From IMG/VR virus record IMGVR_UViG_2609459800_000001: a DNA stretch of 64,000 bases; one strand, given 5' to 3'. The translations under genes were made by a program, and so were the position numbers. This stretch comes from a virus (Duplodnaviria > Heunggongvirae > Uroviricota > Caudoviricetes). Every line of letters starts with the position of its first letter. Within the stretch, counting starts at the first letter, position 1. Shown here piece by piece: positions 3,717 to 61,765 of this stretch. The notes below the pieces were generated by a model. That model did no database searches and was not told the origin of the DNA. It saw only the letters and a program-made list of their open reading frames with translations.

Positions 3717-3733
3717 ATTGCTCTAATAAATAT
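3717..3733 (+). promoter_or_regulatory. C1 repressor operator-like site
   Basis: ATTGCTCTAATAAATAT, 16/17 match to ATTGCTCTAATAAATTT; upstream of uhr-like/hrdC. Confidence 0.5.
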
Positions 3734-3804
3734 TGTTTTTTATGTCGTGTTTTCGGTACCATTCAGCCATCGCCCTTCAATGGGCATTTGTTTGGAGTCG
3801 TCAG

Positions 3805-4089
3805 ATGCAGATGGAGCTAATAAGCCGCAAGGAGTTCGATAGCCGTGTAACCAGCGGTGAACTCGACAACTTGCAGGCTATCAAGGTGAAAGAAGGCTTT
3901 TGCCTCATTGGGAATCAGAGCGGAACAAATCGCGTTTTTATGCTTCGCCGTACGGATTTGAAGCCATTTGTCTGGAAGAACGAAATTGGTCCCAGCTCAT
4001 ACGCTCAAACGAGGGGGTGCCACAACCTGGCCTTTTTCTACAAAGACGAGCTTTCTGTGGTTGATATTCAAGGGTTACAACATGTTTAA
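3805..4089 (+). CDS. hypothetical protein upstream of hrdC (uhr-like position)
   Basis: ORF track 3733..4089; start moved to Met 25 ([11 protein letters not shown]) which has GGAG 7 nt upstream. Confidence 0.45.
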
Positions 4090-4987
4090 GCACTGGAAAA
4101 ACATTACTATTTATAAACTTTCTCGTGAGGCGGATCTGACCGACTTAGAAGATAAAAAGAAAATGATCCTTTTCACGCCATGCGGTAGTCAGGATATGGC
4201 CAAGTTCGGTTTTGTATCTCCATTTGGTGATAATTCCGAAGTTATCGCTATGCATGGAAATGGTTTTATCCTTGTTGAAGCAAAGCGCGAAACAAAAATT
4301 CTTCCCCCGCCGGTTATCCAGCGAGCTATTCAAGAAAAAATTGAAAAACTTGAGCAAGAACAAGCGCGTAAACTGAAGAAAACAGAGAAGGACTCCCTGA
4401 AAGACGAAGTTCTGCATTCTCTTCTGCCACGGGCTTTTTCAAAGTTTTCTGTTATCCAGGCGATCTACGACGGTTCAACTAAACGTATCTATATCAATGC
4501 CAGCGCGCGGCAGGCAGAGGATATGCTCGCGCTTATGCGTAAGTCTCTGGGTTCTCTTCCTGTTGTTCCCCTGAGTGTTGAAAATCCCATTGAATTAACG
4601 CTGACCGACTGGGTACGTGATGGTAGTGCTCCACAGGGATTTCAAATGGGGGATGCGGCAGAACTTAAGGCAGTGCTTGAGGATGGCGGTATTGCCCGAG
4701 TGAAAAAGCAGGATTTGGGAAGCGATGAAATTTCCACACACCTGGAAGCTGGCAAGCTCGTTACTAAGTTGGCACTCGACTGGCAGAACCGCATTAAATT
4801 TACACTGGACCATAACTTCAGCCTTACCAGCGTCAAATTTGCGGATGAATTGCTTGAGCAGAACTCTGATATTGATAGTAAAGATGTTGCGCAGCGACTG
4901 GACGCAGATTTCTTCCTGTTGACCAGTGAAATTTCGTGCCTGGTTGATGCTCTGGTAAATGCCCTTGGTGGAGAGGCTAAGCAGTGA
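4082..4987 (+). CDS. hrdC: RdgC-like recombination-associated protein
   Basis: Translation from [16 protein letters not shown]... collinear with RdgC ([61 protein letters not shown]); ~302 aa. Confidence 0.8.
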
Positions 4988-7248
4988 AAGAGCTGTGCTA
5001 TGGATCTGTTTGCAGTGGAATTGAAGCCGCGAGTATTGCCTGGGAACCGTTGGGTATGCGTCCGGCGTGGTTTGCTGAAATCGAGCCTTTTCCATCTGCC
5101 GTTCTTGCGCACCGCTGGCCCCATGTCGCCAACCTTGGCGACATGACAAAACTTGCCAAAAAAGTCCTGGCTGGGGAAATCGAATCCCCTGATGTGCTCG
5201 TCGGGGGTACGCCTTGTCAGGCATTCAGTATCGCGGGCTTACGTGGTGGGCTTGATGATGAACGCGGCGCGCTAACTTTGAAGTATGTGGAGCTTGCAAA
5301 TGCAATTGACGACAAACGGTCTGAGTCCTTCCTCAAACCGACAGTTATCGTCTGGGAAAATGTCCCAGGAGTCCTGTCATCGGCAGATAACGCCTTCGGA
5401 TGTTTCCTTGCCGGATTGGCTGGAGAAGATGCGCCATTTGAACCAGGTGATCGACCTGAATCAGGAAAAAGTAACGCGTTCTGGCGGTGGGATGGCAAAA
5501 CCGGTTGCCATGCTCCAAAGTGGCCGCAGTGTGGTTGTATTTATGGACCGCAGCGAAAGGTGGCCTGGAGAATCCTTGATGCCCAATACTTCGGAGTGGC
5601 ACAACGACGCCGACGCGTGTTTGTTGTCGCAAGTGCTCGAACAGACCTCGATCCCGCAACGGTACTTTTTGAGTTCGAAGGCGTGCGTCGGAATATTGCG
5701 CCGAGCCGAAAAAAGAAGGAAATCGCTTCCGCCATTATTGCAAATGGCGCTGCAATCAGTGGCGAAAGCCTAAATCCATGCCTACACGCTGACATGCCAC
5801 CCGGTATGAAATCGACGAAAGCCGTAAACGCTTTCAGGATGGCAGCATTTGGGGAATATATTGACGATGAAACCGCATCGACAGTAAAGGCAAGAGATTT
5901 TAAAGATGCCACTGACCTTGCCGTTTTTAGCAGCACAGGAGCAGGTTTTTGGTCAGAAGGGCATGGTACATTGCGGGCACGTGAGCAAGAAAGCCATGAG
6001 CATCTTGTTACATTGGCTTTTCCTGAGCGTATGAGCGGTACACAACATGCTGCAACTAAGAATACTTCACCATCTCTAATGGCTAAAAATCCAACAGCTG
6101 TTTGCTATGAAGTAAGAAACGCAGAAGTAGCTGTCCGCCGTCTTACCCCTGTTGAATGTGAAAGGCTGCAAGGTTTTCCTGATGGGCATACGTTGATCCC
6201 GACGGAAAAGCGTAAAAAAGTTAATTCAGATGAACTGGCATATCTTCGCAATCACTATCCAGATTTAAGCGAAGAAGAGGCCGCGATGCTTGCAGCTGAC
6301 GGACCGCGTTACAAAGCGATCGGCAATAGTATGGCAATACCAGTAATGCGCTGGATTGGCGATCGGATTACTAAGGCCGTATGTCGGCAGAAAGAAGGAA
6401 GTGAAACAAAAGAGCGAAAAGTTAAACCAGCGGCAGAATTCGAACGGTCCATATTCAAATGGGCTGGTGGAAAATTTGGTGTTCTGGAACAAATCTTTCG
6501 CTATTTGCCAGAAGGGAAGCGCCTGATCGAACCTTTTGTCGGTGGCGGAGCTGTCTTCACGAATGCCGGATACCAGGAAAATCTACTAAATGATGTGAAT
6601 GCTGACCTGATTAACTTTTACAAGACTCTGCAACGCGAGGCGCATTCACTTATCACACTGGCGCATCGTTTCTTCCAGGACTACAACACACAGGAAGGAT
6701 ACCTGGCAGTACGGAATGCGTTTAACAAACAAGTCTATGATGATTTACATCGCGCAGCGGCGTTTTTGTTCCTGAACCGACATTGTTTTAACGGATTGAC
6801 GCGTTACAACCAGGCCGGTGAGTTCAATGTCGGTTACGGGAAGTATAAAACTCCGTATTTCCCATTACAGGAGATGGAAGCCTTCCTCGGTGCGGAAGGG
6901 CGGTCTGAGTTTGTATGCGGTGATTTTGCAGCGGTGATTGAAGCTGCCGGAGAAGGAGATGTCATCTTTTGCGATCCGCCGTATGAACCGCTTCCAAATA
7001 CAGAGGGATTCACGAACTATTCCGGTCATGACTTTAAGTTTGAAGAGCAAAAACGCCTGGTGTCTCTGTTGACGGATGCTCATCGTCGAGGTGCAAAGGT
7101 TCTCATTACTAACAGTGGCGCGCCAAACATCAGAGAGCTTTATCATGACAGTGGCTTCAGAGTGGAACCTCTTTTTGCCAGACGTTCTGTGTCTTGTAAG
7201 GGGGACACTCGAGGTGTAGCTCATGACGTTTTGGGTGTATTGCTCTAA
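4984..7248 (+). CDS. dmt: bifunctional DNA methyltransferase (N-terminal C5-cytosine MTase-like, C-terminal Dam-like N6-adenine MTase)
   Basis: ORF track 754 aa; GTPCQAFS and ENV motifs N-terminally, DPPY motif C-terminally; size and position match P1 Dmt. Confidence 0.8.
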
Positions 7249-7255
7249 TAAATTT
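7239..7255 (+). promoter_or_regulatory. C1 repressor operator (perfect consensus), likely operator of the tRNA-tci-ban operon
   Basis: ATTGCTCTAATAAATTT overlapping dmt stop; next rightward genes are tRNAs, tciA, ban. Confidence 0.6.
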
Positions 7256-7920
7256 ATTAGTGTAATATCGCCTCAATGAATCGTGATTTATAGAGCGATT
7301 TAGCTGTTAGCCGCGACAGGCGCGGCGGTAAGCATGGCTGGGCCTAGTCCTCCCAGACAAACCACCGAGTTGCCAGGTTGACCATGCGCCTAAGTGGCAA
7401 CGCCGAAGTGCGTTACGAGCTTCCAGTTTGCCCATCTTCGGGTGGGCGTTTTTTTCAGGGTTTTCGTCATGGTTAGCGACTTTGCGGCGGTTTAGAAACT
7501 GACCATTAAAGTAAATGCAAACGATGATCTGATGATGGTAGCGGCCTAAGAAGCCAGATGCCACGGGGTATGAGTCGTCCCCCGTCAAAAAATCGACCGC
7601 AGAGTGTCCCCGTCTGTGTATTAGGGAACGGGGAGGCACAACAGGTAAGGGCGCTGGTGTGATTAACCAGATGAACGAGAAGGGGCCATCTGTTGGTCAG
7701 CGTCCTTTCCTGTTGCGTTTTCTTTTCAGCGTAACAGCGGTGCTTAACAGCACTTTGGGTACAGTTCCACGAATTTACGGGTATATCCCGTCATGCTGAA
7801 GGCGCTAATCACGCTGGAAGCCAGGGTTGTGCATCCCCTGTTACCGAATTGCAGCCAGGGCGCGGTGCGCCGAAAAGCATACGGAGGTGGAAGCCCTCGC
7901 CGGAGACGTACCCGGCAAGT

Positions 7921-23060: not shown

Positions 23061-23639
23061 ATGAAAGGCGAAGTGAAAGAGCGCGGCATGATTTTCAACG
23101 ATGAGATGGTCCGGGCAATTCTTGGCGGGAATAAAACACAGACTCGCAGGATTGTTGAAGAAAAATTCTATGGACAGGCAGTGGCCGCAGAGTTGCTTGC
23201 TAAGCATTGTCCATATGGTCAACCGGGCGATCGTATTTGGGTTCGCGAAACCTACCGGGTACATGGCAAAGCGACGGACGTCGCAACGCTGGTTTATCGC
23301 GCAAGCGTGCGTAACTCCTGGACAGAACAAACGCACCGGGTTCCGGTCGAGGTTTGTAATAAACCAGTATCAGAAAAGTGGACGCCATCAATTCACATGC
23401 CGCGCTGGGCATCGCGCATTCTTCTGGAAATTACCGACGTGCGTGTGGAACGGCTGCATGACATGAGCGAGTCAGATGCTAAAGCAGAAGGCGCAACTCC
23501 GGCGACGTACAAGATTACGCCATCTGAAGCTGTTTATCGCGTTGGTTTTGGTGATATCTGGCGCAGTATTTACGGGCAGGATAACTGGCTATCTAACCCG
23601 TTGGTATGGGTAATCGAGTTTAAGCGCATTCAGGAATAA
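23061..23639 (+). CDS. ASCH-domain-like protein
   Basis: ORF track 192 aa; N-terminal FNDEMVRAILGGNKTQTRR. Confidence 0.4.
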   Translation: MKGEVKERGMIFNDEMVRAILGGNKTQTRRIVEEKFYGQAVAAELLAKHCPYGQPGDRIWVRETYRVHGKATDVATLVYRASVRNSWTEQTHRVPVEVCNKPVSEKWTPSIHMPRWASRILLEITDVRVERLHDMSESDAKAEGATPATYKITPSEAVYRVGFGDIWRSIYGQDNWLSNPLVWVIEFKRIQE

Positions 23640-23642
23640 ACC

Positions 23643-24521: not shown

Positions 24522-24721
24522 CAATCGTAAAAACCCATACCGGTACCGTGATCACCAAAGATGGCCCGCAGGTAAAAAAATTGCACCAAACAGAGCGGAT
24601 GTGGGTCGTTGGCAAAAACGAGTTTTACCACAAAGAAACTGGACGCCGCCATTTTGCAGAAAATACGCGCCGCCGACTGCTGTTAGACACCATCAAGCCT
24701 ATCGAGGTGAAGCATGTTTAA
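24518..24721 (+). CDS. hypothetical protein
   Basis: ORF track 67 aa; ATGA overlap with previous gene. Confidence 0.35.
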   Translation: MTIVKTHTGTVITKDGPQVKKLHQTERMWVVGKNEFYHKETGRRHFAENTRRRLLLDTIKPIEVKHV

Positions 24722-25699: not shown

Positions 25700-25700
25700 T

Positions 25701-26599: not shown

Positions 26600-26600
26600 T

Positions 26601-26798: not shown

Positions 26799-26808
26799 GG
26801 CATAACGA

Positions 26809-39507: not shown

Positions 39508-39510
39508 ACA

Positions 39511-39653: not shown

Positions 39654-39686
39654 GACACAGACGCCAAAAGCGTCTTTTTTTGTGTC
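39654..39686 (+). terminator. rho-independent terminator (nested stems plus T7 run)
   Basis: GACACA-GACGC-CAAAA-GCGTC-TTTTTTT-TGTGTC. Confidence 0.6.
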
Positions 39687-39689
39687 ATG

Positions 39690-39860: not shown

Positions 39861-39866
39861 GCCATT

Positions 39867-41197: not shown

Positions 41198-41202
41198 TGG
41201 AA

Positions 41203-41226
41203 GAATGCCCGGTTGATGCCGGGCAT
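41203..41226. terminator. bidirectional hairpin between convergent ant-like gene and c1
   Basis: ATGCCCGG-TTGATG-CCGGGCAT. Confidence 0.5.
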
Positions 41227-41229
41227 AAT

Positions 41230-42081
41230 TTATTGCGCGCTTTCGGGGTTGTCGTTTACTGGCTGCCCCTTCTTGGTTTTACGGCTGCGCGTAACTGATG
41301 CGGCTGACTTAACCTTTTTCTCTTCGCGAGTGATGGCAATTTGTTTTTTTACATTTTCAATATCTGCCAGGCGATATATTTTTGCTTGCGGCCAGCGGTC
41401 GCAGATGATCGGTTCTATGGAGTCATAAAGGCTAAATTTTGCTTTTTCGAATTCACCGTTGATGATAATTCCATCACGGAGAGTTTCATCGCAGATAAAC
41501 ACGCCACACAGTGGCACATGGTAACTAACTGATTTACCATCATTGTAGTTAGGGCTACTGGAAATGTAGTGGACGCGCAGCATTGTTTCGCTAAAGCCGT
41601 GTACGCGCATACGGAATTTTTCATCCTCCGGGTACTGCCTCATTAGCTCTTTTGTTGCTTCCAGGTTCTCTATGTATTTCGCACTGTGCTCATTGATCCC
41701 CGCGCTTTTTTGGATGCGAATGTCCTTATCAATCAGATGAATAATGCGGCCAGCGGTCATGTTGACGCTGTTCACAGCTTCTGTCTGATAAGTTGTAACC
41801 TTGCGCACACCGCGAAGGATGTTAGGCACTGGATATAAAATAGTCTTTGGGATATTGAGGTCTGGGTACTGTTCCAGTTCCCGCGCCATTAAAGTCCATT
41901 TATCAATTTCAGCCTGAATGCTGTCAGTTTCTTTGAACGGTAGAACGACAACCGGGCGTACAGGACGACCGTCGCTGGCTGTATCAACGTGTTGGGCGCG
42001 TGCAACAGCTTTTTTTAGAAAGAGATCCCTGAAGCTGACGAACTCCTGGTACAGTTGTTCGCCGTAGACATAATTTATCAT
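41230..42081 (-). CDS. c1: C1 repressor of lysis
   Basis: ORF track 283 aa MINYVYGEQLYQEFVSFRDLFLKK...; size and sequence recognised as P1 C1. Confidence 0.85.
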   Translation of the reverse strand: MINYVYGEQLYQEFVSFRDLFLKKAVARAQHVDTASDGRPVRPVVVLPFKETDSIQAEIDKWTLMARELEQYPDLNIPKTILYPVPNILRGVRKVTTYQTEAVNSVNMTAGRIIHLIDKDIRIQKSAGINEHSAKYIENLEATKELMRQYPEDEKFRMRVHGFSETMLRVHYISSSPNYNDGKSVSYHVPLCGVFICDETLRDGIIINGEFEKAKFSLYDSIEPIICDRWPQAKIYRLADIENVKKQIAITREEKKVKSAASVTRSRKTKKGQPVNDNPESAQ

Positions 42082-42191: not shown

Positions 42192-42401
42192 TTATTGTGA
42201 GTCTAACTGGTTAGTTGCCATGAGATATTCGATTGTGTCAGTGAGGTCATCCAGGTCGTCTTGGGTGATGCGGTACTCCTGATTGGATATCTTTGAGTAG
42301 TGTTCAGCAATGGCGCGGGCAGCGTCGGTTTCGGCAGGGTCTACAGATAAAGCGTTAGAGCAATGTCTAACGTCGTCGATGGTTGGTTGAATGAAAGCCA
42401 T
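42192..42401 (-). CDS. coi: C1 inactivator Coi
   Basis: ORF track 69 aa MAFIQPTIDDVRHCSNALSVDP... directly upstream of c1. Confidence 0.75.
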   Translation of the reverse strand: MAFIQPTIDDVRHCSNALSVDPAETDAARAIAEHYSKISNQEYRITQDDLDDLTDTIEYLMATNQLDSQ

Positions 42402-44283: not shown

Positions 44284-44300
44284 ATTGCTCTAATTCTTTG
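44284..44300 (+). promoter_or_regulatory. C1 operator-like site
   Basis: ATTGCTCTAATTCTTTG, 13/17 to consensus, upstream of 44317 gene. Confidence 0.45.
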
Positions 44301-44772: not shown

Positions 44773-44976
44773 TTATAATTGAGCCGTGGCGTTAGTCAAC
44801 TACGAAGACGTGGCCATTACCTACTTAACCAGTTCCGCCAGGGCAGCAGAGTAGGTTTCATCTCGGATGTACCATGCCTGCATGTTTTCCAGAGAAGCCC
44901 GCGAGGTTCCCGGACAGGACTCTGCCATTGCGATAGATTAAATGCAATAACCTAAAAGCGATAACGTGGTGGAAAA

Positions 44977-45614
44977 ATGTTCATCAGAGCTTATTTAAGG
45001 GCATCAACGGAAGATCAGTTTGCCGATCGGGCAAAAGAGATGCTGGGGCAGTTTGTTCAGGAGCGGGGACATAAAATAGCCAGTTACTACCGGGAGAACA
45101 TAAGCGGTACAAAACTCGACCGCCCGGAACTGGGACGCTTACTGATGGACAGCCACCGCAATGATATTTTACTGGTCGAGCAAATTGACCGCCTGACCCG
45201 TCTGAGTAACAGTGACTGGATTACGCTGAAAAAGCAGATAGAACAACACGAACTGCGGATTGTCGCCTGGATGTATCCACCTCATGGCAGGCGCTGTCAG
45301 ATAAAGACCCTTCGCAGGCTGACCCAATCACCCGCGCCGTGATAACCGCCATCAATAACATGCTTATCGACCTGATGGCCGCGATGTCGCATAAGGACTG
45401 GCTGAGCCGTCGCCAACGGCAACAACAGGGAATTGAACGGGCTCATACGCTGGGTAAATACCGGGGATAACAGGCCGATCAGGAACGGCATCAGAAAGTC
45501 CTGTACTACCGGCAGGTCAAGAAACTAAGTATCCATGAAACGGTAGATGCGACAGGGTACAGTCCTTCACAGATATGCCGCATTCAAGAGAGCCTGAATC
45601 GGAATAAAAAGTAG
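44977..45614 (+). pseudogene. serine recombinase (resolvase) pseudogene, frameshifted and interrupted by a stop
   Basis: N-terminal catalytic domain MFIRAYLRASTEDQ (track ORF 44977..45342); continuation in another frame ...DPITRAVITAINNMLIDLMA...GKYRG, TAA stop, then HTH-like LSIHETVDATGYSPSQICRI. Confidence 0.6.
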
Positions 45615-45713
45615 CCCTGGCGTTAATGGATTACCTTTCCAGGCTAAGCTCATTGCTCCTGTCAGATACGCAGCCCTGCCTGTAATAATACAGACTGGGC
45701 AATGTGTTGCCAC

Positions 45714-46115
45714 TCAGGCTGACAACTGTCGGAGGATATCCGCTGTATTATAATGAGCCCGTTTTTCTATATATTTCCCGTCCTTCAGAGTGATCATAAA
45801 TATCAGAGAAAAGCGCACTTTCCTGCCGCTGGCAGGATGCCCAAGGAATTCACGGGTCTGCACGCCTTCAAAGATAAGATAGCAGGCGACTTTATCGTCT
45901 CTGGCAAAGATTTCGTGGATACGCATTGTAAATCCCGGAAAAGCATCCATATGGCCTTTTTCCTGTACGATAAACTGCTCACTGTTCAGCGGTGTATCCA
46001 CCTGAGAATAGAATTTAAAATCCGGATGGCAGAGGTTTTTCACCTCATCATATTTATTTTCTTCAATCAGACGATAAAACTTTTTAACCGTTTTGATATT
46101 TTCTTCAACAGACAT
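45714..46115 (-). CDS. SnoaL-like / NTF2-fold protein
   Basis: ORF track 45714..46127; start set at MSVEENIKTVKKFY with GAGGTG upstream. Confidence 0.5.
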   Translation of the reverse strand: MSVEENIKTVKKFYRLIEENKYDEVKNLCHPDFKFYSQVDTPLNSEQFIVQEKGHMDAFPGFTMRIHEIFARDDKVACYLIFEGVQTREFLGHPASGRKVRFSLIFMITLKDGKYIEKRAHYNTADILRQLSA

Positions 46116-46123
46116 ATTGCACC

Positions 46124-47113
46124 TCATTTTTCAGTTTCTTTACCTGCCGGAATATTGCCTGCCGGCGTTCCGTTAAATGTTTTTCGCCATTCACTGGGAC
46201 TGACTCCCATCCGCTGCCGGAATATCTGCCGGAAAGTAATGGTGGACTGAAAGCCTGCCAGTTCGGCAACCCGCTCCACTGCAATATCTGTACTTTCCAG
46301 CAGTTCCTGACTCCGCCGGAGACGCTCTGTGGTGATCCACTCCCAGACCGTCATTCCTGTGGCCGAATGAAAATGGCGTGTAAGCGTTCTTCGGCTCATG
46401 GAGGCTAAATGGGCCAGAGTGTCAATATCATGTGGTAATCCCAGATTTGCGGACAGGTATTCCAGCAGCTGGTTTATGCGGTTATCGGACGTACTTTTGG
46501 GAATAAGCAGTTGCCGGTACTGTGCCTGTCCGCCTTCCCGGTAAGGAGGAGCAACCATCCGGCGGGCTATTTGATTAGCCGTATATCTGCCCAGGCGTTG
46601 CCGGATCACATGGAGACAACAGTCCAGTGCTGCGGCTGTACCGGCTGAGGTGATAATCCGCTCGTCCTCAACATAAAGCACGTTCACGTCCAGATGAACC
46701 GCCGGGAAAAGCATCTGGAAATCCCGTTCAGCCTCCCAGTGCGTGGCCGCCCGTTTACCATCCAGCAGACCGGTGTAAGCCAGAACAAAACTCCCCAGGC
46801 ACAGGCCCACCACCTGAGCTCCATTTTTCCAGGCTGCAACCAGGGCACTGAGCAGAGTTTCAGAAGGCCTTTCATGGATGTGTTTCCAGAAAGGAATAAT
46901 AACGATATCGGCCTCTGCCAGTGCATCAAGCCCGTATTCTGCCCTCATCGCCGTACCTTCAGCAGACCAGATAAGCCCGGGCTCTTCCGCACATACCCGG
47001 CGGCTGAAGAGAGCCTTCCCTTCCAGTATCTCCCCGAACAGGATTAGTGGAACGGAGACATGAAATGTACTGAACCCTTCGGTGATCACTATAGCGACAG
47101 TGATGGTGGACAT
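46124..47113 (-). CDS. GlxA-family transcriptional regulator (DJ-1/PfpI domain plus AraC-type HTH)
   Basis: ORF track 329 aa; C-terminal AraC HTH (RRTLTRHFHSATGMTVWEWITTERLRRSQELLESTD). Confidence 0.65.
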   Translation of the reverse strand: MSTITVAIVITEGFSTFHVSVPLILFGEILEGKALFSRRVCAEEPGLIWSAEGTAMRAEYGLDALAEADIVIIPFWKHIHERPSETLLSALVAAWKNGAQVVGLCLGSFVLAYTGLLDGKRAATHWEAERDFQMLFPAVHLDVNVLYVEDERIITSAGTAAALDCCLHVIRQRLGRYTANQIARRMVAPPYREGGQAQYRQLLIPKSTSDNRINQLLEYLSANLGLPHDIDTLAHLASMSRRTLTRHFHSATGMTVWEWITTERLRRSQELLESTDIAVERVAELAGFQSTITFRQIFRQRMGVSPSEWRKTFNGTPAGNIPAGKETEK

Positions 47114-47128
47114 GCCATGGCCTCCGGG

Positions 47129-47905
47129 TTAAATCGTAACTGATTCACCATCAGCAGGAACGGCAACTGACGCCTGGATCTGGTTATCGCGGGCATATTC
47201 CAGCAGTTCCTGACGGGTCAGCAGACAGTGGTTTACGGCCTCCATGTGCGTTGCCACAATCAGTGCCTCTGGTACGATACGATGGGCTTTCAGGACATCT
47301 TCCCTGCCGAAAATAATGGGGCCGAATCCGAGAACATGCGCCCAGCCCGTATTCATAATAACGACGCCAGGATTGAACCGACGTAAATTATCCTCTACAG
47401 CCTTGATCCAGATGGTATCCCCGACCAGATAGAGCGTTTTTTCGGACGGATGCTGGAAGACCACCCCACAGGCATCCCCAAGGATTGCTGCGAGTTGCGG
47501 GTTAGCATAGGCTTCGTCCGAACCATGCTGACAAACGGTTTTAATAAGTGAAATTTCGCCAAATGTGCTTTTGTCAGACAGAATAACAAGGTTGCTGAAG
47601 CCCTGGGAACGCAGGATCTTTTCATCATGTTCATTCTGAACATAAATCAGTTTATCTTTCGGGATGTGCGCAACAGCCGCTTCATCCCAGTGGTCAGGGT
47701 GTGTGTGGGTGACAATAATGGCATCCACATCCAGCAGTACATCAAGGTCAAAAGGCAGCTCAGTCATCGGGATGCGGATATCTGACCGGGCCGTTCCTTC
47801 GAATCCCGGATAGGCTTCTTTTTTCGCAAGCATCGGATCGACAAGAAATTTTTTACCAGCGTAAGAAATGAGTTGTGTGGCGTTACGTACCTGGATGATC
47901 TTCAT
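47129..47905 (-). CDS. MBL-fold metallo-hydrolase
   Basis: ORF track 258 aa; THTHPDHW metal-binding motif. Confidence 0.65.
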   Translation of the reverse strand: MKIIQVRNATQLISYAGKKFLVDPMLAKKEAYPGFEGTARSDIRIPMTELPFDLDVLLDVDAIIVTHTHPDHWDEAAVAHIPKDKLIYVQNEHDEKILRSQGFSNLVILSDKSTFGEISLIKTVCQHGSDEAYANPQLAAILGDACGVVFQHPSEKTLYLVGDTIWIKAVEDNLRRFNPGVVIMNTGWAHVLGFGPIIFGREDVLKAHRIVPEALIVATHMEAVNHCLLTRQELLEYARDNQIQASVAVPADGESVTI

Positions 47906-48120
47906 TTTAGCAAGTCCTGTATTGGTTAATAACCATCAGAGCCATATCATGATGGCCTAATGTGATAATTATGATTAAATCAGGCCTGCCTGCCACTGAA
48001 ATAATGCCATATTTGGATGATATCAGGCCATTCTTCTGGCTCTCAGGTTTCAGGAATATGTCTGCTGAAAGCGGGTACAGATCTGACGCATTGAAGGGAA
48101 GTATCGTCCTTTAAGGCTTA

Positions 48121-48510
48121 TTGATGTCAGCCAGTACAAAAAATCATCTTAACGTACAATATCTTCCGTTTCCCAAACGGAGCCCACCAACGACGGAGGA
48201 ACGGCGCGTCGCCAATGCTCTTGGCGCTCTCCCCTGCATTGCCTGCTATATGCATGGAGTAATATCTAATGAGGTGTCTCTGCACCATATCGCCGGTCGT
48301 ACCGCGCCGGGTTGTCATAAAAAGCAATTGCCACTTTGTAGATGGCACCACCAGCATGCAGCTCCGGCGGAAGTAAGAGAAAAATACCCATGGCTGGTCC
48401 CTGTTCATGCCGATGGTGTGGTTGGAGGCAAGAAAGAATTCACCTTGCTGAACAAGTCAGAGATGGAGTTACTGGCTGACGCCTATGAGATGGCAAATAT
48501 CATGCACTAA
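48121..48510 (+). CDS. HNH-motif protein (possibly Ref-like)
   Basis: ORF track 129 aa; CIACYMHG...HHIAG...CRWHH. Confidence 0.4.
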   Translation: MMSASTKNHLNVQYLPFPKRSPPTTEERRVANALGALPCIACYMHGVISNEVSLHHIAGRTAPGCHKKQLPLCRWHHQHAAPAEVREKYPWLVPVHADGVVGGKKEFTLLNKSEMELLADAYEMANIMH

Positions 48511-48698
48511 TAAATATATTATTTTTAATGATAAATGATTGACAACTGACAAGTGACTTCAGTCAGAATCATCACACGCCCGGTACGGATGGATCCCTTT
48601 TCAAATATTCCATGGACGGCACAGTCTGAGTACCGGGCGCTACCTTCAGTTGTATTGCTAAGCCGCCGCTGGTGGCTTTTCTTTTTTGTAGGGGCGCT

Positions 48699-49340
48699 AT
48701 GGATAAGAAAATATGCGTTGTTTCAATGAGCGTCGGCAAACCGGCGTCAATGACTGCTGCATGGATCAACAATGAGCTGATAATGGCTGAGCGGACCAGC
48801 TACCCTGAACGCCGCCGCGATATGGAACTCCAGCTGCTGCGCGAATTGCGAGAAAAAGAGGAAAAGGGTTTTATCGTGCTGGTGGAAGAGGAAAACAGCT
48901 TTATTACCGGTCAAGTTGGCCAGCGTGTAAGGTTGCGTGATCCCTTCATGAACGGCAGACCGGTACTGATTGAAGCAATGCAGATTTACAAGGAATTGGA
49001 ACGCCAGAAAGCGATCAAGTTACCGCGCAAGGAATCCGGCAAATACATCCTTCACCAAAGCATCTTCGATTCCGAACACGATAAAAAAGGCGATGAATTT
49101 TTCAACATCAACTGGAGCGAAATAACGACAGAGCATGTTCTGACGTTACTATGTTGCTTTGCGACGGAATACAACAACGTTGCCAGCGCCGACTACATCA
49201 GGGCAATGGCTGGAGAAGTTGAAGCCCGCCAGGAACCATCGTTACTAAGTCCACTTATTAACATAATTCTGGGTACCCAGACACTGGAACAAAAAAAAGT
49301 GCCGAAAGGGGTATTAACAGGCAAGCATAATTATTTCTAA
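48699..49340 (+). CDS. hypothetical protein
   Basis: ORF track 48672..49340; start set at Met 10 (MDKKICVVSMSVGK). Confidence 0.4.
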   Translation: MDKKICVVSMSVGKPASMTAAWINNELIMAERTSYPERRRDMELQLLRELREKEEKGFIVLVEEENSFITGQVGQRVRLRDPFMNGRPVLIEAMQIYKELERQKAIKLPRKESGKYILHQSIFDSEHDKKGDEFFNINWSEITTEHVLTLLCCFATEYNNVASADYIRAMAGEVEARQEPSLLSPLINIILGTQTLEQKKVPKGVLTGKHNYF

Positions 49341-49506
49341 TAATTTATAGTGGGGACTTTTGATGGTGTAAAACCCCATGAATTATTATTTTTTAGTTTT
49401 TTGATTCTATTTTTTTTGCATTACCCGTCATAAAAATGAGCTTGCTTACATAATAGAAAATTATTTTATCAACACTATTACAACAAACGATTATCACTGA
49501 TAACAT

Positions 49507-49530
49507 GAGTCCTTTGAAAACAAAGGACTC
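49507..49530 (+). promoter_or_regulatory. perfect 10-bp-arm hairpin 8 nt upstream of GNAT start codon
   Basis: GAGTCCTTTG-AAAA-CAAAGGACTC then ACCATACT-ATG; no obvious SD between. Confidence 0.4.
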
Positions 49531-49538
49531 ACCATACT

Positions 49539-50147
49539 ATGTCTAATACCTCGGCAAATGAAATTGTACCGCACTTACCGCTAATTTTCGAAAATGAAGC
49601 TAATGGGATTCTTCAGGATCTGGCCTATACTCCATCGCTTATGGGGTTGATGATGTTCCCGACAGAAGAGGAGCTGAAAGCAGCGAGAAGCTACATAATT
49701 AACGTTTTTGAAGAGTGTTACCGAGCCGGTCATTTGCGCATTATGGGCTTTACTAATGAAGAAAACTTGTTCGGATACGCCTTAATCTTCGGACATCCAT
49801 CGGGAAATTTTCCGTTGTACTGTCATAAAATATATGTATATGAGCAATATCGTGGTAATGGACTTGGAAGTAATATACTGGCAGAAATACTTGCATTTCC
49901 AAATGAGGTCGCTTTGATTTGCCAGTCTGATTTGGTTCCTTTTTATGAATCAGCCGGAATGCACTTTAAAGGAAATTACACCACTCCATCAGTCGCCAAT
50001 TTCAAAAAAACTCGCGGCATGTATGAGGGGCTTTGTTTGATGAGCACTGAAAAAAATGCAAACTCTAATGGTGTACCTATATTCATGCTGAACGATAACG
50101 ATATTGATAACATCATACAGGCTATCGCATCATCGGCACCACGATAA
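49539..50147 (+). CDS. GNAT-family N-acetyltransferase (AT-rich accessory gene)
   Basis: ORF track 202 aa; acetyl-CoA motif YVYEQYRGNGLGSNIL; AT-rich gene and 200-bp AT-rich upstream region. Confidence 0.55.
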   Translation: MSNTSANEIVPHLPLIFENEANGILQDLAYTPSLMGLMMFPTEEELKAARSYIINVFEECYRAGHLRIMGFTNEENLFGYALIFGHPSGNFPLYCHKIYVYEQYRGNGLGSNILAEILAFPNEVALICQSDLVPFYESAGMHFKGNYTTPSVANFKKTRGMYEGLCLMSTEKNANSNGVPIFMLNDNDIDNIIQAIASSAPR

Positions 50148-50229
50148 TATTAATAATTCATCTCGCCGCAGGAACTACAAACCAGTTGATTGTTTGTGAA
50201 ACGCCCGGTGCAAACCGGGCCAACAAAAC

Positions 50230-50478
50230 TCAATCAGCATTTAGTAGCAGAGCATTATCTATGATGATCTGCTCCCATTCTTCGAATGCCCGGTCGCGGA
50301 CGCCCTGGGGAACGCTGTTTGTTTTGAAATCGACGACCGTCCGCCATTTTCCGTCAGGACGGTACATGCGCAGAGCTTTACTTCCCCCTTCCCTGCGCAC
50401 CTCAACGTTATGCTTGTCAGCAAACTCTTGTAATGCTCGTAGCGTCCCATGCTTTACTGTGTAGTATCGCTTTTTCAA
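50230..50478 (-). CDS. small basic protein (possible lxc/bof-like position)
   Basis: ORF track 82 aa. Confidence 0.35.
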   Translation of the reverse strand: MKKRYYTVKHGTLRALQEFADKHNVEVRREGGSKALRMYRPDGKWRTVVDFKTNSVPQGVRDRAFEEWEQIIIDNALLLNAD

Positions 50479-53070: not shown

Positions 53071-53309
53071 TCCTGGGCTTCGTTTGGGAAACGTACAATA
53101 TTGTACGGTTGCGCTATTGCGGTAGGGTGTACTCCAACGCTATACGGTCTTTGGCAGACCTTTAGGGAAATGAGATAAGCTAAATGCGATAAGAGAAAAG
53201 CAATAACTTAAAGGCAATAGCTGATTACGATAAATCAATCAGTTACTTATCAGTATCGATTAAAAAATGCTCCTAACGTACAATAATTTCCGTTTCCCAA
53301 ACCGACCCC
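53071..53309. repeat. left copy of ~240-bp inverted repeat (MITE-like, short terminal inverted repeats)
   Basis: Near-perfect reverse complement of 56729-56968; each copy bounded by GTTTGGGAAACG...CGTTTCCCAAAC. Confidence 0.8.
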
Positions 53310-53320
53310 TAATAGCCGGA

Positions 53321-53500
53321 CTACGGACGCGCAATAATTCGCCCCTGACTTTCCAGCAGTTGGTAAGCATGTCCGACGGTCATGAAGCTCATGCCGCTGC
53401 TGGCGACCTGTTCGCGCAGTGACGGCAGACGATCGCCGGGTCGCCAGACGCCAGAGGCGATCTGTTCGCAAAGTTGTTCAGCCAGACGCTGGTATTTTTT
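53321..53500 (-). pseudogene. N-terminal fragment of a GntR/MocR-family regulator (winged HTH), no start codon, truncated after ~60 codons
   Basis: Minus-strand translation KKYQRLAEQLCEQIASGVWRPGDRLPSLREQVASSGMSFMTVGHAYQLLESQGRIIARP then stop next to the repeat. Confidence 0.5.
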
Positions 53501-53670
53501 ATTCTGGTTTCTCGTCGGTCAATGCAGGTGAGCCTCGCAGTGTATAACAGTGAATAAAATTCACAACGATTTGCAAACTGTTATGGTTAAATATGTCTGT
53601 TCTGTTTCTGCCCCTCATTGCCTCACACGCTTAGAATTGCGCTGAATCAATTTTTAATGCGGAGTCAGGC

Positions 53671-55071
53671 ATGTTTGGTCTTGATGCGTATCACCTGGCA
53701 AGGATCCAGTTCGCCTTTACAGTTTCATTTCACATTATCTTTCCGGCGATCACCATTGGGCTTGCCAGTTATCTGGCGGTGCTGGAAGGCCTTTGGCTAA
53801 AAAGCAAAAATCCGGTCTGGCGCTCGTTGTACCACTTCTGGTCAAAAATATTCGCCGTAAATTTCGGCATGGGCGTGGTTTCCGGTCTGGTGATGGCCTA
53901 TCAGTTCGGCACCAACTGGAGCGGTTTTTCGGAATTCGCAGGCAGTATTACCGGGCCGTTGCTTACCTATGAGGTGCTGACCGCTTTCTTCCTTGAAGCC
54001 GGATTCCTCGGGGTGATGCTGTTTGGCTGGAATAAAGTCGGTCCGGGTTTGCATTTCTTCTCAACCTGCATGGTGGCGCTTGGCACCCTCATTTCCACCT
54101 TCTGGATCCTGGCGTCTAACAGTTGGATGCAAACGCCGCAGGGGTTTGAGATCGTCAACGGCCAGGTTGTGCCCGTGGACTGGTTCGCCGTTATCTTCAA
54201 TCCTTCGTTCCCTTATCGGCTGCTGCATATGTCCGTCGCCGCATTTCTCAGTAGCGCGCTGTTTGTCGGCGCTTCGGCAGCCTGGCATCTGCTGCGCGGC
54301 AACGCAACGCCAGCCATTCGCACGATGTTTTCCATGGCGTTGTGGATGACGCTTATTGTCGCGCCGGTGCAGGCGTTAATCGGCGATATGCATGGGCTGA
54401 ACACCCTGAAACATCAGCCAGCCAAAATCGCCGCGATTGAAGGTCACTGGGAAAACCCGCCGGGTGAGCCCACGCCGCTGCTGCTGTTTGGCTGGCCGGA
54501 TATGGAACAGGAACGCACCCGCTATGGACTGGCGATCCCGGCGCTGGGAAGCCTGATCCTGACGCACAGTCTGGATAAACAGGTTCCGGCGCTAAAAGAA
54601 TTCGCCAAAGAGGATCGCCCTCACTCGACGATCGTGTTCTGGTCGTTTCGCATCATGGCCGGCCTGGGCATGTTAATGATCCTGCTAGGGCTCTGTGCGC
54701 TCTGGCTGCGCTACAGGCAGCGCCTCTACACCTCGCGCCCGTTCCTGCGCTTTGCGCTATGGATGGGACCCTCGGGGCTCATCGCCATTCTCGCGGGCTG
54801 GGTGACCACTGAGGTCGGACGCCAGCCGTGGGTGGTGTACGGTTTACAGCGTACTGCCGACGCGGTGTCGGCCCACGGCGATTTACATATGAGCATTTCG
54901 TTGCTCGCTTTCTTTGTTGTCTACAGCTCAGTCTTTGGCGTCGGCTACAGCTATATGATTCGCCTGATCCGCAAAGGCCCGCTGGAAGATGATTCCGCGC
55001 CGCCGCCGGGCACACCCGCCAGGCCGCTTTCCGCCGCCGTCCTCGATTCTCAACATAAGGCACATCGCTAA
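53671..55071 (+). CDS. cytochrome bd-type ubiquinol oxidase subunit I (short Q-loop, CioA-like)
   Basis: ORF track 466 aa; MFGLDAYHLARIQFAFTVSFHIIFPAITIGL..., GRQPW motif; lacks the long Q-loop insert. Confidence 0.8.
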   Translation: MFGLDAYHLARIQFAFTVSFHIIFPAITIGLASYLAVLEGLWLKSKNPVWRSLYHFWSKIFAVNFGMGVVSGLVMAYQFGTNWSGFSEFAGSITGPLLTYEVLTAFFLEAGFLGVMLFGWNKVGPGLHFFSTCMVALGTLISTFWILASNSWMQTPQGFEIVNGQVVPVDWFAVIFNPSFPYRLLHMSVAAFLSSALFVGASAAWHLLRGNATPAIRTMFSMALWMTLIVAPVQALIGDMHGLNTLKHQPAKIAAIEGHWENPPGEPTPLLLFGWPDMEQERTRYGLAIPALGSLILTHSLDKQVPALKEFAKEDRPHSTIVFWSFRIMAGLGMLMILLGLCALWLRYRQRLYTSRPFLRFALWMGPSGLIAILAGWVTTEVGRQPWVVYGLQRTADAVSAHGDLHMSISLLAFFVVYSSVFGVGYSYMIRLIRKGPLEDDSAPPPGTPARPLSAAVLDSQHKAHR

Positions 55072-56081
55072 TGGGTATTGATTTATCGGTTATCTGGTTT
55101 GTGATCATCGTTTTCGCCACGCTAATGTATATCGTGATGGATGGATTCGATTTGGGTATTGGCATTCTGTTTCCTGTCACACGAAACGCAGAGGATCGTG
55201 ATGTGATGGTCAATAGCGTCGCGCCGGTGTGGGACGGTAATGAAACCTGGCTGGTGCTGGGCGGCGCGGGGCTGTTTGGGGCTTTCCCGATGGCCTATGC
55301 GGTTATTATCGATGCGCTGACCATTCCGTTGACGCTGATGCTGATCGGACTGATTTTTCGCGGCGTGGCCTTCGAGTTTCGCTTCAAGGCCACGCCAGCC
55401 CACCGCCCATTTTGGGACCATGCTTTTCTCGGCGGGTCGATTCTGGCTACCTTCGCCCAAGGGATCGTGGTTGGCGCAGTGATCAACGGTTTCCCGGTGA
55501 CCGGTCGCAGCTACAGCGGCGGGCCGTTCGACTGGTTAACCCCCTTCACTCTGTTCTGTGGCGTCGGACTGGTCGTTGCCTATGCGCTCTTAGGCGCAAC
55601 CTGGCTGGTGATGAAAAGCGAAAATCCGCTTCAGGATAAAATGCGCAGCGTCGCGAAAAAACTGCTGCTGGCCCTGCTGTTGTCAATTGCGATAATCAGC
55701 CTCTGGACACCGTTAGCGCATCCGGCGATCGCCGACCGTTGGTTTACGCTTCCCAACCTGGGCTATCTGCTGCCGGTTCCGGTGCTGGTGATCGCGTTCA
55801 GCGTCTGGTTATGGCGCACACTGGGTCGTCCGGAAAACCACACGTTTCCGTTTGTGCTGACGCTCGGGCTAATCTTCCTTGGTTTCAGCGGCCTGGGCAT
55901 CAGTATCTGGCCGCACATTATTCCGCCTTCGGTTACCCTCTGGCAGGCAGCCGCCCCCGCCCAGAGTCAGGGGTTTATGCTGGTCGGTGCGCTGCTCATC
56001 ATTCCGGTGATTTTGGTGTACACCTTCTGGAGTTACTATGTGTTTCGCGGCAAAGTGCAACATGGCGAGGGGTATCACTGA
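55071..56081 (+). CDS. cytochrome bd-type ubiquinol oxidase subunit II
   Basis: ORF track 336 aa polytopic membrane protein; ATG overlaps subunit I stop. Confidence 0.8.
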   Translation: MGIDLSVIWFVIIVFATLMYIVMDGFDLGIGILFPVTRNAEDRDVMVNSVAPVWDGNETWLVLGGAGLFGAFPMAYAVIIDALTIPLTLMLIGLIFRGVAFEFRFKATPAHRPFWDHAFLGGSILATFAQGIVVGAVINGFPVTGRSYSGGPFDWLTPFTLFCGVGLVVAYALLGATWLVMKSENPLQDKMRSVAKKLLLALLLSIAIISLWTPLAHPAIADRWFTLPNLGYLLPVPVLVIAFSVWLWRTLGRPENHTFPFVLTLGLIFLGFSGLGISIWPHIIPPSVTLWQAAAPAQSQGFMLVGALLIIPVILVYTFWSYYVFRGKVQHGEGYH

Positions 56082-56209
56082 TGCAACATTCTCTCTGGAA
56101 ACGCCTGATGTGGCTGGTCATCCTTTGGGGCGGCAGCGTGTTGGCGCTGGCGGCGGTGGGCATGTTTTTTCGCCTGCTCATGACTGCGGCGGGGTTTAAA
56201 GCGCATTAA
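56081..56209 (+). CDS. CydX-like small membrane subunit (42 aa)
   Basis: ATG overlaps subunit II stop (TGATG); MQHSLWKRLMWLVILWGGSVLALAAVGMFFRLLMTAAGFKAH; below ORF-track cutoff as an independent ORF. Confidence 0.5.
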   Translation: MQHSLWKRLMWLVILWGGSVLALAAVGMFFRLLMTAAGFKAH

Positions 56210-56313
56210 GCGGACACCTCGCCGGATGTCGGCTTTGGGCCAGGCGTTAACCGGCGGAAATAAATACCAACACAAAGGCCCGGTAAACGCCACCGGGCTG
56301 ATGTCGCAAAGGA

Positions 56314-56728
56314 TTAAGGTTTACGCTTCGGCAGCGTTTTCATCAGATCTTCCGGACTGACGGAACCCACCACGCTGCCCGGCAGCGGCATTTTAAGAAT
56401 GTGATCTTCAATCTTGCCGATAACGTGCATTTCACACGGGCGACAGCCAAATTTCAGCGTCAGCACCTCATCACCGTTGACCAGTTGCATTGGCGTCGCT
56501 TTCCAGCTTTTGATGTTACCTTTCGCCTGTTTCGGGCAAAGATTAAAGGCAAAACGCAGGCAATGCTTGGTGATCATCACAGGCACATCGCCCTTTTCTT
56601 GATGCGCTTCATACGCCGCGTCGATCAACTGTACGCCATAACAATGGTAGAACTCACGCGCCTTCTGGTTATAGACGTTTGCCAGAAAACTCAGATGCGT
56701 CTGCGGGTAGACCGGCGCGGGATCGGAG
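56314..56728 (-). pseudogene. 3' fragment of a larger gene truncated at right inverted repeat (function unassigned)
   Basis: Track ORF 56314..56628; frame stays open upstream (…PDPAPVYPQTHLSFLANVYNQKAREFY…) to the repeat boundary with no start. Confidence 0.4.
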
Positions 56729-56968
56729 GGGTCGGTTTGGGAAACGGAAATTATTGTACGTTAGGAGCATTTTTTAATCGATACTGATAAGTAACTGATT
56801 GATTTATCGTAATCAGCTATTGCCTTTAAGTTATTGCTTTTCTCTTATCGCATTTAGCTTATCTCATTTCCCTAAAGGTCTGCCAAAGACCGTATAGCGT
56901 TGGAGTACACCCTACCGCAATAGCGCAACCGTACAATATTGTACGTTTCCCAAACGCAGCCCAGGTAC
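56729..56968. repeat. right copy of ~240-bp inverted repeat
   Basis: Reverse complement of 53071-53309. Confidence 0.8.
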
Positions 56969-57594: not shown

Positions 57595-57970
57595 TAAAAA
57601 CGCCGGTGCCCGCCGATGGTTCCAGAGTGTTACCTACGTCCGCGCCATAGAGGTTCATGATCTCCCAGACGCCTTCAGCGATAGGCTTTGGTGTGTAATA
57701 TTCGGAGACGGACCCGCCAATGCCGCCTTCGCCGGTGTACCCAGCCAGGATCTGGCGCTGTTCATCTGTCAGTGTCGCGCCATCCACCAGCGAATTAAGC
57801 AAATCTATCGCCTTCTGATTCGCCTCCCGGCGCAGCCGGTCATAGCTTTTGCCTTCCACCTTTTCCACGCCGTATCTAATCGGCGCTCGATGAGATGTTA
57901 TTGCCCTAATGTATTTCAATATTTCGCTGACACTTGAACAGCGAAACACCCCCATAGATAGCTTGTTCAT
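57581..57970 (-). CDS. N6-adenine methyltransferase-like N-terminal domain (DarB-like)
   Basis: ORF track 129 aa; SAM-binding-like LEPSAGTGVF; overlaps next ORF by 14 bp in another frame. Confidence 0.4.
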   Translation of the reverse strand: MNKLSMGVFRCSSVSEILKYIRAITSHRAPIRYGVEKVEGKSYDRLRREANQKAIDLLNSLVDGATLTDEQRQILAGYTGEGGIGGSVSEYYTPKPIAEGVWEIMNLYGADVGNTLEPSAGTGVFNETI

Positions 57971-60799: not shown

Positions 60800-60810
60800 C
60801 TCGTTAACTA

Positions 60811-61029
60811 TTATCGCCTTCGCCTGCGTGCCATATATTTGCGCACCGCGCGGCGTGGACAATCTGAAGCGGTTTCTTTCTGCTGCATCAATCTTGCAGC
60901 CATGCTCAAAAATGTCAGGCACAGCCGAAGCCCGGCATACAATAGCGGTTCCAGTGGCCACGTCTCATTGAGCACATATACCGCCATGAAAATCGAGTCG
61001 AAAACTATCGCCGCCAGCGATAACTTCAT
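60811..61029 (-). CDS. small membrane protein with highly basic C-terminus (holin-like?)
   Basis: Track ORF 60811..61065; MKLSLAAIVFDSIFMAVYVL... ending RRAVRKYMARRRRR; directly downstream of lyz. Confidence 0.35.
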   Translation of the reverse strand: MKLSLAAIVFDSIFMAVYVLNETWPLEPLLYAGLRLCLTFLSMAARLMQQKETASDCPRRAVRKYMARRRRR

Positions 61030-61057
61030 TGTCGAAAGTCGGCGGAGCTGCCGGAGT

Positions 61058-61615
61058 TTATTCATTGACCAGTCCCGTCAGGCAAAGCTGGCGTTCTTTT
61101 TCACGGCGAATCTTTAAACCTCGCAGGGGCACGCCGTTACTGTTCACGAAATCAGGGAGATGGTTACACATATTCACCCATTCCCCTTTCTGCGCCCACT
61201 TGTGGATGGACGTTTCTACTCGCATGCCTCGCGCTTTGCTGTAGTAGGTCCGTAAGCTATTACATCCCATATTGAATGCCGCGCTTGTCATTGCACTGAA
61301 GGCATTATCGGGCATGTCTTTGCCCCGGAAGTGCTGATTAATACAGCGTTCAGCGATCAGGATATTCTTTTCCCAATCAGCGGCGATTTGCTGGTCGGTT
61401 TTTCGCACACCCGGCGTTACCCCGTGTGTATTACCGATCCCGTCAGTCCATACCCCCGCCGGGCACATGTATGGATCACGTCGGCAACCTTCAGCGTTAC
61501 CAATCAGCTCAAGCCCTGCCTGGTTGGTTCGCACATTGCCATTACCCATCACGATGGTAATCATCACCGCGATAGCGCAAATTGCACCGCCTCCTGCGGC
61601 TGTTTTTCCCTTCAT
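61058..61615 (-). CDS. lyz: SAR endolysin (T4 e-type lysozyme with signal-anchor-release domain)
   Basis: Track ORF 61058..61657; 185-aa product from MKGKTAAGGGAICAIAVMITIVMGNGNVRTNQAGLELIGNAEGCRRDPY recognised as P1 Lyz. Confidence 0.85.
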   Translation of the reverse strand: MKGKTAAGGGAICAIAVMITIVMGNGNVRTNQAGLELIGNAEGCRRDPYMCPAGVWTDGIGNTHGVTPGVRKTDQQIAADWEKNILIAERCINQHFRGKDMPDNAFSAMTSAAFNMGCNSLRTYYSKARGMRVETSIHKWAQKGEWVNMCNHLPDFVNSNGVPLRGLKIRREKERQLCLTGLVNE

Positions 61616-61748
61616 AAAGACCTCATAAGCGAATTTTTTACGCTCCAGGACAAACACTCATTCACAGCCAATACCGACTGACTCGATCCCTTTAGAAGGC
61701 ACAGGATAATGCAAATCACTTGTTAGCTACGTTTCAAAGATATACATT

Positions 61749-61765
61749 ATTGCTCTAATTAATTT
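61749..61765 (+). promoter_or_regulatory. C1 operator-like site upstream of ssb
   Basis: ATTGCTCTAATTAATTT, 16/17 to consensus. Confidence 0.5.

Follow-up and report, generated by a model that had tools for sequence, protein, structure and literature searches.

A dispersed set of 17-mers in a P1-like phage-plasmid matches the C1 operator network of phage P1, with candidate further sites at a second immI module and at c8

The C1 repressor of phages P1 and P7 acts at scattered operators (Op2a/b, Op21, Op51, Op53, Op55, Op68, Op72ab, Op82, Op83, Op86ab, Op88, Op94, and Op99a-e, renamed Oref through Oc1e in AF234172). In P1, C1 is inactivated by Coi and also by a complex of Ant1 and Ant2, and the synthesis of Ant is in turn kept down by c4 RNA (PMC8546580). 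The P1 immI region, which lies between sim and kilA, is ordered as Op51, the promoters P51a and P51b, the c4 antisense RNA, icd, and ant1/ant2. We analyzed a 64,000-nucleotide stretch of DNA (IMG/VR record IMGVR_UViG_2609459800_000001), referred to below as the window, in which an earlier note had pointed out at least 14 dispersed 17-mers resembling C1 operators. By megablast the window falls among P1-like phages and plasmids. It is a P1-like phage-plasmid of the genus Punavirus and is 96 to 99% identical to P1 across long collinear blocks. Its 17-mers have the same asymmetric consensus as the P1/P7 operators, and we read them as the operator set of a P1-type C1 repressor, in an element that itself encodes C1, Coi, and Lxc, with a probability of roughly 0.93. 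The network as such is textbook P1 biology and is not novel, since all 17 of the annotated P1 sites that the window covers are present at orthologous positions.

The P1 record used as the alignment reference (AF234172/NC_005856), whose operator names and coordinates are followed here, annotates 20 monovalent "phage repressor C1" sites. The canonical immI and the lytic replication region, with Op51, Op53, and Op55, lie outside the window, and the covered part contains 17 of these sites. Each was found at its predicted window coordinate, 14 with an identical sequence and three (Oppp, Oc1b, and Oc1e) with one substitution, and in the same orientation relative to promoters as in P1:

3717 to 3733, plus strand: Odmt (Op68), ATTGCTCTAATAAATAT, 17 of 17 bases matching P1 65145-65161, an annotated C1 operator abutting the Pdmt -35; 26.1 bits; uhr-hrdC-dmt operon
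7239 to 7255, plus strand: Obana (Op72a), perfect consensus, identical to P1 68667-68683; 27.6 bits; half of the bivalent operator of the tRNA-tci-ban operon
7250 to 7266, minus strand: Obanb (Op72b), the overlapping inverted partner of Obana, identical to P1 68678-68694; 23.4 bits
17101 to 17117, minus strand: O26 (Op82), between gene 26 (baseplate/tail operon) and pmgL, identical to P1 78528-78544; 24.9 bits
18008 to 18024, minus strand: Oppp (Op83), between pmgM and pmgN, 16 of 17 bases matching P1 79435-79451; 19.4 bits
20725 to 20741, plus strand: OpmgRa (Op86a), identical to P1 82152-82168, overlapping the PpmgR -35
20774 to 20790, minus strand: OpmgRb (Op86b), identical to P1 82201-82217
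22866 to 22882, plus strand: OpmgT (Op88), at the pap stop codon, identical to P1 84293-84309; heads an operon with about 10 kb of non-P1 early genes
36205 to 36221, plus strand: Olpa (Op94), operator of lpa, the activator of late promoters, identical to P1 89904-89920
42165 to 42181, plus strand: Oc1b, the weak half of the bivalent Op99ab, 16 of 17 bases matching P1 94166-94182
42176 to 42192, minus strand: Oc1a (Op99a), at promoter Pc1 (c1 autoregulation), identical to P1 94177-94193
42348 to 42364, minus strand: Oc1c (Op99c), inside coi, identical to P1 94349-94365; 14.7 bits
42640 to 42656, minus strand: Oc1d (Op99d), within promoter P1coi, identical to P1 94641-94657
42723 to 42739, plus strand: Oc1e (Op99e), abutting the P4cre -35 upstream of lox, cra, and cre, 16 of 17 bases matching P1 94724-94740
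44756 to 44772, plus strand: Oref (Op2a), identical to P1 1962-1978, parted from ref by a 3.4-kb insertion from 44820
48501 to 48517, plus strand: Omat (Op2b), upstream of mat, identical to P1 2628-2644; 20.4 bits
61749 to 61765, plus strand: Ossb (Op21), upstream of ssb, identical to P1 21015-21031; 25.9 bits

Judged by orthology to the promoter annotation of AF234172, these operators lie over or adjoin sigma-70 promoters of early, replication, and immunity genes; in the P1 annotation the -35 is the position of Odmt, OpmgT, Olpa, and Oc1e, whereas Oref and Oc1d fall between the two hexamers and OrepL covers the -10. Relative to P1/P7, the set differs in the three single-base substitutions, in extra sites at 39511 and 44284, and in the detachment of ref from Oref. 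Downstream of OpmgT, the leader that precedes the pmgT-like start codon also contains a strong 15-bp stem-loop (22910-22942), which was scored as a minus-strand terminator and lies in a block 98.8% identical to P1.

The cognate repressor and both of its modulators are encoded on the same element, coi and lxc within P1-collinear blocks:

41230 to 42081, minus strand: c1, its protein identical to P1 C1.100 at 280 of 283 amino acids (99%)
42192 to 42401, minus strand: coi, an open reading frame (ORF) for the C1 inactivator, mapping to P1 94193-94402
50230 to 50478, minus strand: lxc (bof), an ORF for the corepressor that strengthens C1 binding, mapping to P1 9750-9998

The abundance of the motif was assessed in two ways. 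Searching both strands for the consensus ATTGCTCTAATAAATTT with at most three mismatches gave 16 matches where 0.25 were expected, and among 100 dinucleotide-preserving shuffles the largest count was 2, none reaching 16. A weight matrix built from the 20 C1 operators annotated in the P1 record was then scanned over the window, with 300 first-order Markov simulations as the null. This returned 19 sites of at least 14 bits (null mean, 0.80) and 17 of at least 18 bits (null, 0.04). The 9-mer TGCWCTAAT occurs 16 times in the window, each time within a site found by the matrix. When the sites were aligned with 25 nucleotides of flank, similarity was confined to the 17-mer and about eight T-rich bases on its 3' side, which in several annotated P1 promoters are TTGxTT-type -35 hexamers beginning at the last operator base. 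Matrix matches of 8 to 13.4 bits, among them 11222, 17997, 22741, 26890, 29066, 32176, 38719, 47929, and 49832, were taken as background because under the null a window is already expected to hold 2.5 matches scoring 12 bits or more and about 7 scoring 10 bits or more. None of them lies at the head of an accessory block.

The network described in the earlier note is thus real: 13 of its 14 sites were recovered with at most three mismatches, and the last, at 44284, with four mismatches and 18.7 bits. Two minus-strand sites placed at about 17102 and 42174 really begin at 17101 and 42176. The perfect match claimed at 7239 is indeed perfect, the motif is far more frequent than expected at random, and the placement of sites ahead of hrdC, the tRNA-ban operon, the tail operon, lpa, c1/coi, cre, and ssb agrees with the AF234172 annotation. 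Its minimum of 14 turned out to be an undercount, the present tally being 17 mapped orthologues, two credible extra sites, and one doubtful one. It had included 12 of the 17 orthologues and missed Obanb (7250, minus strand), Oppp (18008, minus strand), Oc1b (42165, plus strand), Oc1c (42348, minus strand), and Omat (48501, plus strand). That every site is intergenic or lies at a gene end is correct for the 14 listed, but Oc1c lies inside coi and the doubtful site at 57900 inside darB.

The first of the extra sites, which has no P1 counterpart at its locus, begins 4 nucleotides past the stop codon of pacB, where a 1.7-kb segment without P1 equivalent (39505-41231) has its left border. It is followed by these features:

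39511 to 39527, plus strand: Op51-type operator-like site TTTGCTCTAATGAATTG; 19.2 bits, null expectation 0.03 per window
39602 to 39680, plus strand: isrK-type leader RNA (Rfam RF01394, 59 bits against a gathering cutoff of 50), ending in an intrinsic terminator at 39659-39675 and then a T-run
39725 to 39812, plus strand: C4 antisense RNA (Rfam RF01695, 75 bits against a gathering cutoff of 45)
39867 to 40088, plus strand: icd-like ORF of 73 amino acids with a GTG start, 71% identical in nucleotides to the P1 icd/ant1 region and annotated as Icd-like in homologous plasmids
40085 to 41197, plus strand: Ant-like antirepressor of 370 amino acids with Pfam ORF6N and ANT/KilAC domains, 57% identical in amino acids to P1 Ant1

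The icd-like stop codon overlaps the ant start (ATGA), and a terminator follows the Ant-like gene at 41205-41226. From 39511 to 41226 the order of elements is that of P1 immI, and the segment is, as predicted from its features, a complete second immI module with the full P1 architecture of operator, leader, C4 RNA, icd, and ant. The predicted C4 pairing fits this layout, each target having one copy in the leader and a second immediately ahead of the icd ribosome-binding site. The C4 segment CCTTTTGC (39769) is complementary to the GCAAAAGG targets at 39645 and 39848, the latter abutting the ribosome-binding site, and the segment GTCTCAA (39784) is complementary to the TTGAGAC targets at 39628 and 39817. 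C4 loops and targets covary between alleles.

Several features set this cassette apart from P1 immI. It lies between pacB and c1 and not at the expected sim to kilA-repL location, its leader matches the Rfam isrK family and not c4-a1b1, its C4 recognition sequence is GTCTCAA where the P1 type has CTGTCAA, and the central part of its Ant protein carries the ORF6N domain. The isrK-orf45-anrP locus of Gifsy-1 in Salmonella (Hershko-Shalev et al. 2016, PMC4825925) likewise combines a terminated isrK-type RNA, a small ORF, and an antirepressor, with RNA-RNA pairing controlling translation. The Gifsy-1 locus is not described as lying under a P1-type C1 operator, and its output is the antiterminator AntQ, compared with C1 inactivation in the P1 type.

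We judged the promoter context of site 39511 by alignment to P51a and P51b. A TTGTGT -35 (39525-39530), which the site overlaps, and a TACATT -10 (39548-39553) align with P51a. The immI alleles aligned were P1 Op51/P51a, the canonical immI of JL22, and the allele of the window as it occurs in pSJ_98 and an MBT-5 plasmid, where it occupies the canonical locus; across them the core TGCTCTAAT and the promoter hexamers are invariant, including in P1 Op51, and the upstream DNA is unrelated. Wherever the site departs from the consensus, an annotated operator has the same base (OrepL for T1, Olpa for G12, and Oref for G17). Nine of 11 other cassettes examined carry TTTGCTCTAATAAATTG, which matches the consensus at 15 of 17 positions, and the G at position 12 is found in the cassette of the window and in one contig, as in Olpa. 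Taken together, these observations point to site 39511 as a probable C1 operator.

The module is widespread. In PLSDB the pacB-cassette junction is found in 274 plasmids and the P1-type pacB-c1 junction in 315, so that about 47% of P1-like plasmids have the module. JL22 has both the cassette and a canonical immI of the P1 type, and the two differ in their C4 recognition sequence. An antirepressor insert between pacB and c1 was noted, and not analyzed, by Venturini et al. (2019), and the JL22 paper does not discuss immunity.

The second extra site lies at c8:

44284 to 44300, plus strand: operator-like site ATTGCTCTAATTCTTTG, 17 nucleotides ahead of the c8 start codon; 18.7 bits (0.03 expected under the null)

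At this position P1 and P7 have ATTGCTATAATTATTTG (P1 1485-1501), which is not annotated as an operator. An A there replaces the near-invariant C7, giving the core ATTGCTATAAT. The two alleles can be written as TGCTCTAAT (C allele) and TGCTATAAT (A allele), and the C-to-A change in P1/P7 creates a consensus TATAAT within a perfect extended -10, TGnTATAAT. The C allele also has an extended -10 form, and its TCTAAT is the annotated -10 of PkilA inside OrepL; the candidate operator at 44284 would thus overlap an extended -10-like c8 promoter. In JL22 the site reads ATTGCTCTAATTATTTG, the first 14 nucleotides being the same as in Orlf/Op55. Among IMG/VR P1-like contigs the operator core is the majority allele, with 56 of 63 carrying it and 7 of 63 the P1/P7 variant. 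We propose, at slightly under even odds, that C1 may repress c8 in most natural elements and that the reference phages have lost this control. We infer that sites 39511 and 44284 would belong to the same regulon in this element, the former as the operator of a heteroimmune second immI module.

A further match is doubtful:

57900 to 57916, plus strand: ATTGCCCTAATGTATTT, within the 5' part of the darB coding sequence; 16.9 bits (0.12 expected per window under the null)

P1 has the identical 17-mer at 17166-17182, with no operator annotation. Conservation of the site is uninformative because the entire region shows about 99% identity in P1 and JL22, and a flank-anchored scan of viral contigs for the site covered only 3 contigs. 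The match is probably not functional and may be due to chance; we consider an operator role unlikely. In the same gene, the central part (53073-56962) is too divergent from P1 for blastn alignment, and the junction 57583/57586 lacks an equivalent of about 2.3 kb of P1 darB (14582-16852), which suggests that DarB here is a variant or shortened protein.

A number of points weigh against our interpretation of these sites. C1 binding and repression are taken from the P1 literature and annotation, and for this element they rest on orthology; sites 39511 and 44284 are candidate operators by sequence. Site 44284 has four mismatches to the consensus, yet it retains a perfect 11-nucleotide core, ATTGCTCTAAT, and when a good -35 hexamer was sought there none was convincing, leaving only the extended -10-like TGCTCTAAT. 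Site 57900 has C6, a base present in 0 of the 20 annotated sites, lies within coding sequence, and would arise by chance about once per eight windows. P1 Oc1b scores only 6.3 bits and would be unrecognizable from its sequence alone, and the 20 monovalent sites of the P1 record compare with 22 operators cited in PMC8546580.

The operators are set in a mosaic genome. The window spans upfB, dmt, ban, tail genes, lpa, pacAB, c1, lox-cre, mat, lxc, darB, prt-pro, and ssb, and aligns to P1 in these blocks:

2480 to 23152: P1 63908-84579, 98.8% identity
33832 to 39505: P1 87530-93204
41231 to 42799: P1 93232-94800
42800 to 44820: P1 1-2026
48179 to 49340: P1 2306-3468
50232 to 53073: P1 9752-12594
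57586 to 62474: P1 16852-21740

At its left end the window begins with an IS66-family, ISEc23-like element (1-2490) that is 99.8% identical to copies on many Escherichia coli plasmids and meets the P1 backbone within the ppfA/upfB region (P1 coordinate 63908). Toward the right end, about 0.7 kb (62474-63159) is unaligned to P1 and may be a small insertion; its flanks correspond to the adjacent P1 coordinates 21740 and 21747, inside isaA.

Besides the immI cassette, three of the four internal non-P1 segments concern us here, and within them (23152-33832, 44820-48179, and 49340-50232) the matrix scan found no extra operator above background. The segment at 23152-33832 starts 270 bp past OpmgT and replaces most of P1 pmgT-lxr with about 10 kb of co-oriented ORFs of lambdoid early-region type (PAPS-reductase-like, Ead/Ea22-like, DUF551, and several PHROG families of unknown function), leaving only short P1-matching islands (pmgU and hot). 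It corresponds to variable region RD-5 of Venturini et al. Since these genes are co-oriented downstream of OpmgT/Op88 and a terminator scan found no strong plus-strand terminator before 32854, C1 control through this operator is plausible, and the early-gene block, which has no operator of its own, probably depends on Op88. At 44820-48179 a 3.4-kb transposon-like insert begins 48 bp past Oref and interrupts ref, of which only the 3' part remains, with its RecA_dep_nuc domain (48121-48510). The insert carries a truncated resolvase gene on the plus strand and, on the minus strand, genes for a SnoaL-like protein, an AraC/DJ-1-like regulator, and a metallo-beta-lactamase-fold protein. This cargo is not under Oref, because its genes lie on the opposite strand, and ref itself is cut off from Oref. 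At 49340-50232 the EcoPI res-mod genes (P1 3468-9752) are absent, and in their place is a gene for a 202-amino-acid GNAT acetyltransferase (49539-50147, plus strand), co-oriented with and downstream of mat. The suggestion that insertions were placed under lysogenic repression is thus supported only in part. It is plausible for the block past OpmgT but fails for the 3.4-kb cargo and for the immI cassette, which brought its own probable operator and was not placed under an existing one.

These junctions bear on the idea that the repeats derive from a mobile element or a site-specific recombination system, as its remnants or its targets, and mark mosaic boundaries without any regulatory role. In three cases a mosaic boundary coincides with the 5' edge of an operator: the immI allele present at two genomic locations, where homology between the cassette and the canonical immI starts exactly at the operator (39512); Op51 in JL22 versus P1; and the c8 site, whose 5' flank diverges among P1, P7, and JL22 right up to the 17-mer. 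Non-P1 DNA begins shortly past Oref and OpmgT, as described, and Venturini et al. report an insertion hot spot at P1 1957-1982, that is, at Oref. On the other hand, the junction-operator observation rests on a few alignments, few junctions were examined, and the events are not independent. The shared similarity extends over no more than about 25 nucleotides, there is no terminal-inverted-repeat architecture, and no target duplications were seen. Selection alone would put junctions beside operators, because operators are the first functional element of each module. We rejected the mobile-repeat explanation, which we hold to be very improbable, on the grounds that similarity is limited to the 17-mer and its T-rich 3' flank. 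The operators may mark module starts or act as short shared recombination sequences, and their closeness to junctions may simply reflect the former.

A second possibility is that the 17-mer is a generic promoter element, a -35 or extended -10-like word of P1 early promoters, and not a repressor site. The resemblance of TGCTCTAAT to an extended -10, the use of TCTAAT as the PkilA -10, and the many sites that abut a TTGxTT -35 would fit such a reading. The placement of the 17-mer, however, varies from upstream of the -35, to between the hexamers, over the -10, and past the start, and it occurs in both orientations and also inside coi. It is therefore better described as a protein-binding site superimposed on promoters than as a single promoter element. 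In addition, the P1 record annotates these as C1-bound sites, citing earlier entries for individual operators. We give this explanation the same very low weight as the mobile-repeat one. The weakest alternative, that an AT-rich word recurs by chance at about 49% genomic guanine plus cytosine, does account for the background-like matches at 11222, 38719, and 49832 (12 to 13.4 bits) and, at a 12% expectation, perhaps for 57900, but the match counts and the coincidence of positions with annotated operators refute it for the whole set and leave it standing for 57900 and matches below 14 bits only.

With the 17-mers read as C1 operators, the prophage state can be pictured as follows, by a mechanism that is established for P1. 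C1 would bind each asymmetric 17-bp site, two pairs of which, at ban and at c1, would form overlapping bivalent operators. Since most sites overlap or abut the -35 or -10 of sigma-70 promoters, repression would work by promoter occlusion, with bound C1 blocking RNA polymerase at many scattered early operons simultaneously. The operons silenced would be uhr-hrdC-dmt, tRNA-ban, pmgL/gene 26, pmgN-ppp, pmgR-S, the pmgT operon, lpa, c1/coi, cra-cre, ref, mat, and ssb, and repression of lpa would extend, via Lpa, to all late genes. Lxc would tighten C1 binding, and Coi and the Ant proteins would release C1.

Our results indicate that a wild P1-like plasmid, in spite of heavy mosaicism in the surrounding DNA, has conserved the C1 regulon almost perfectly. 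More tentatively than for c8 itself, we suggest that the regulon may be larger in natural P1-like plasmids than in the laboratory phages, taking in the second immI next to c1 and the c8 operator core; as a weaker corollary, operators may lie at mosaic boundaries. What this adds is modest, namely a widespread second immI with its own probable operator and its own C4 specificity, a c8 majority allele, and a probably Op88-dependent block. If it is true, C1 would restrain two independent antirepressor triggers with differing C4 specificities in about half of these plasmids, and c8 would have escaped C1 control in the reference strains P1 and P7. Such an arrangement would bear, in an incremental way, on superinfection immunity and on the induction of P1-like plasmids that spread resistance.

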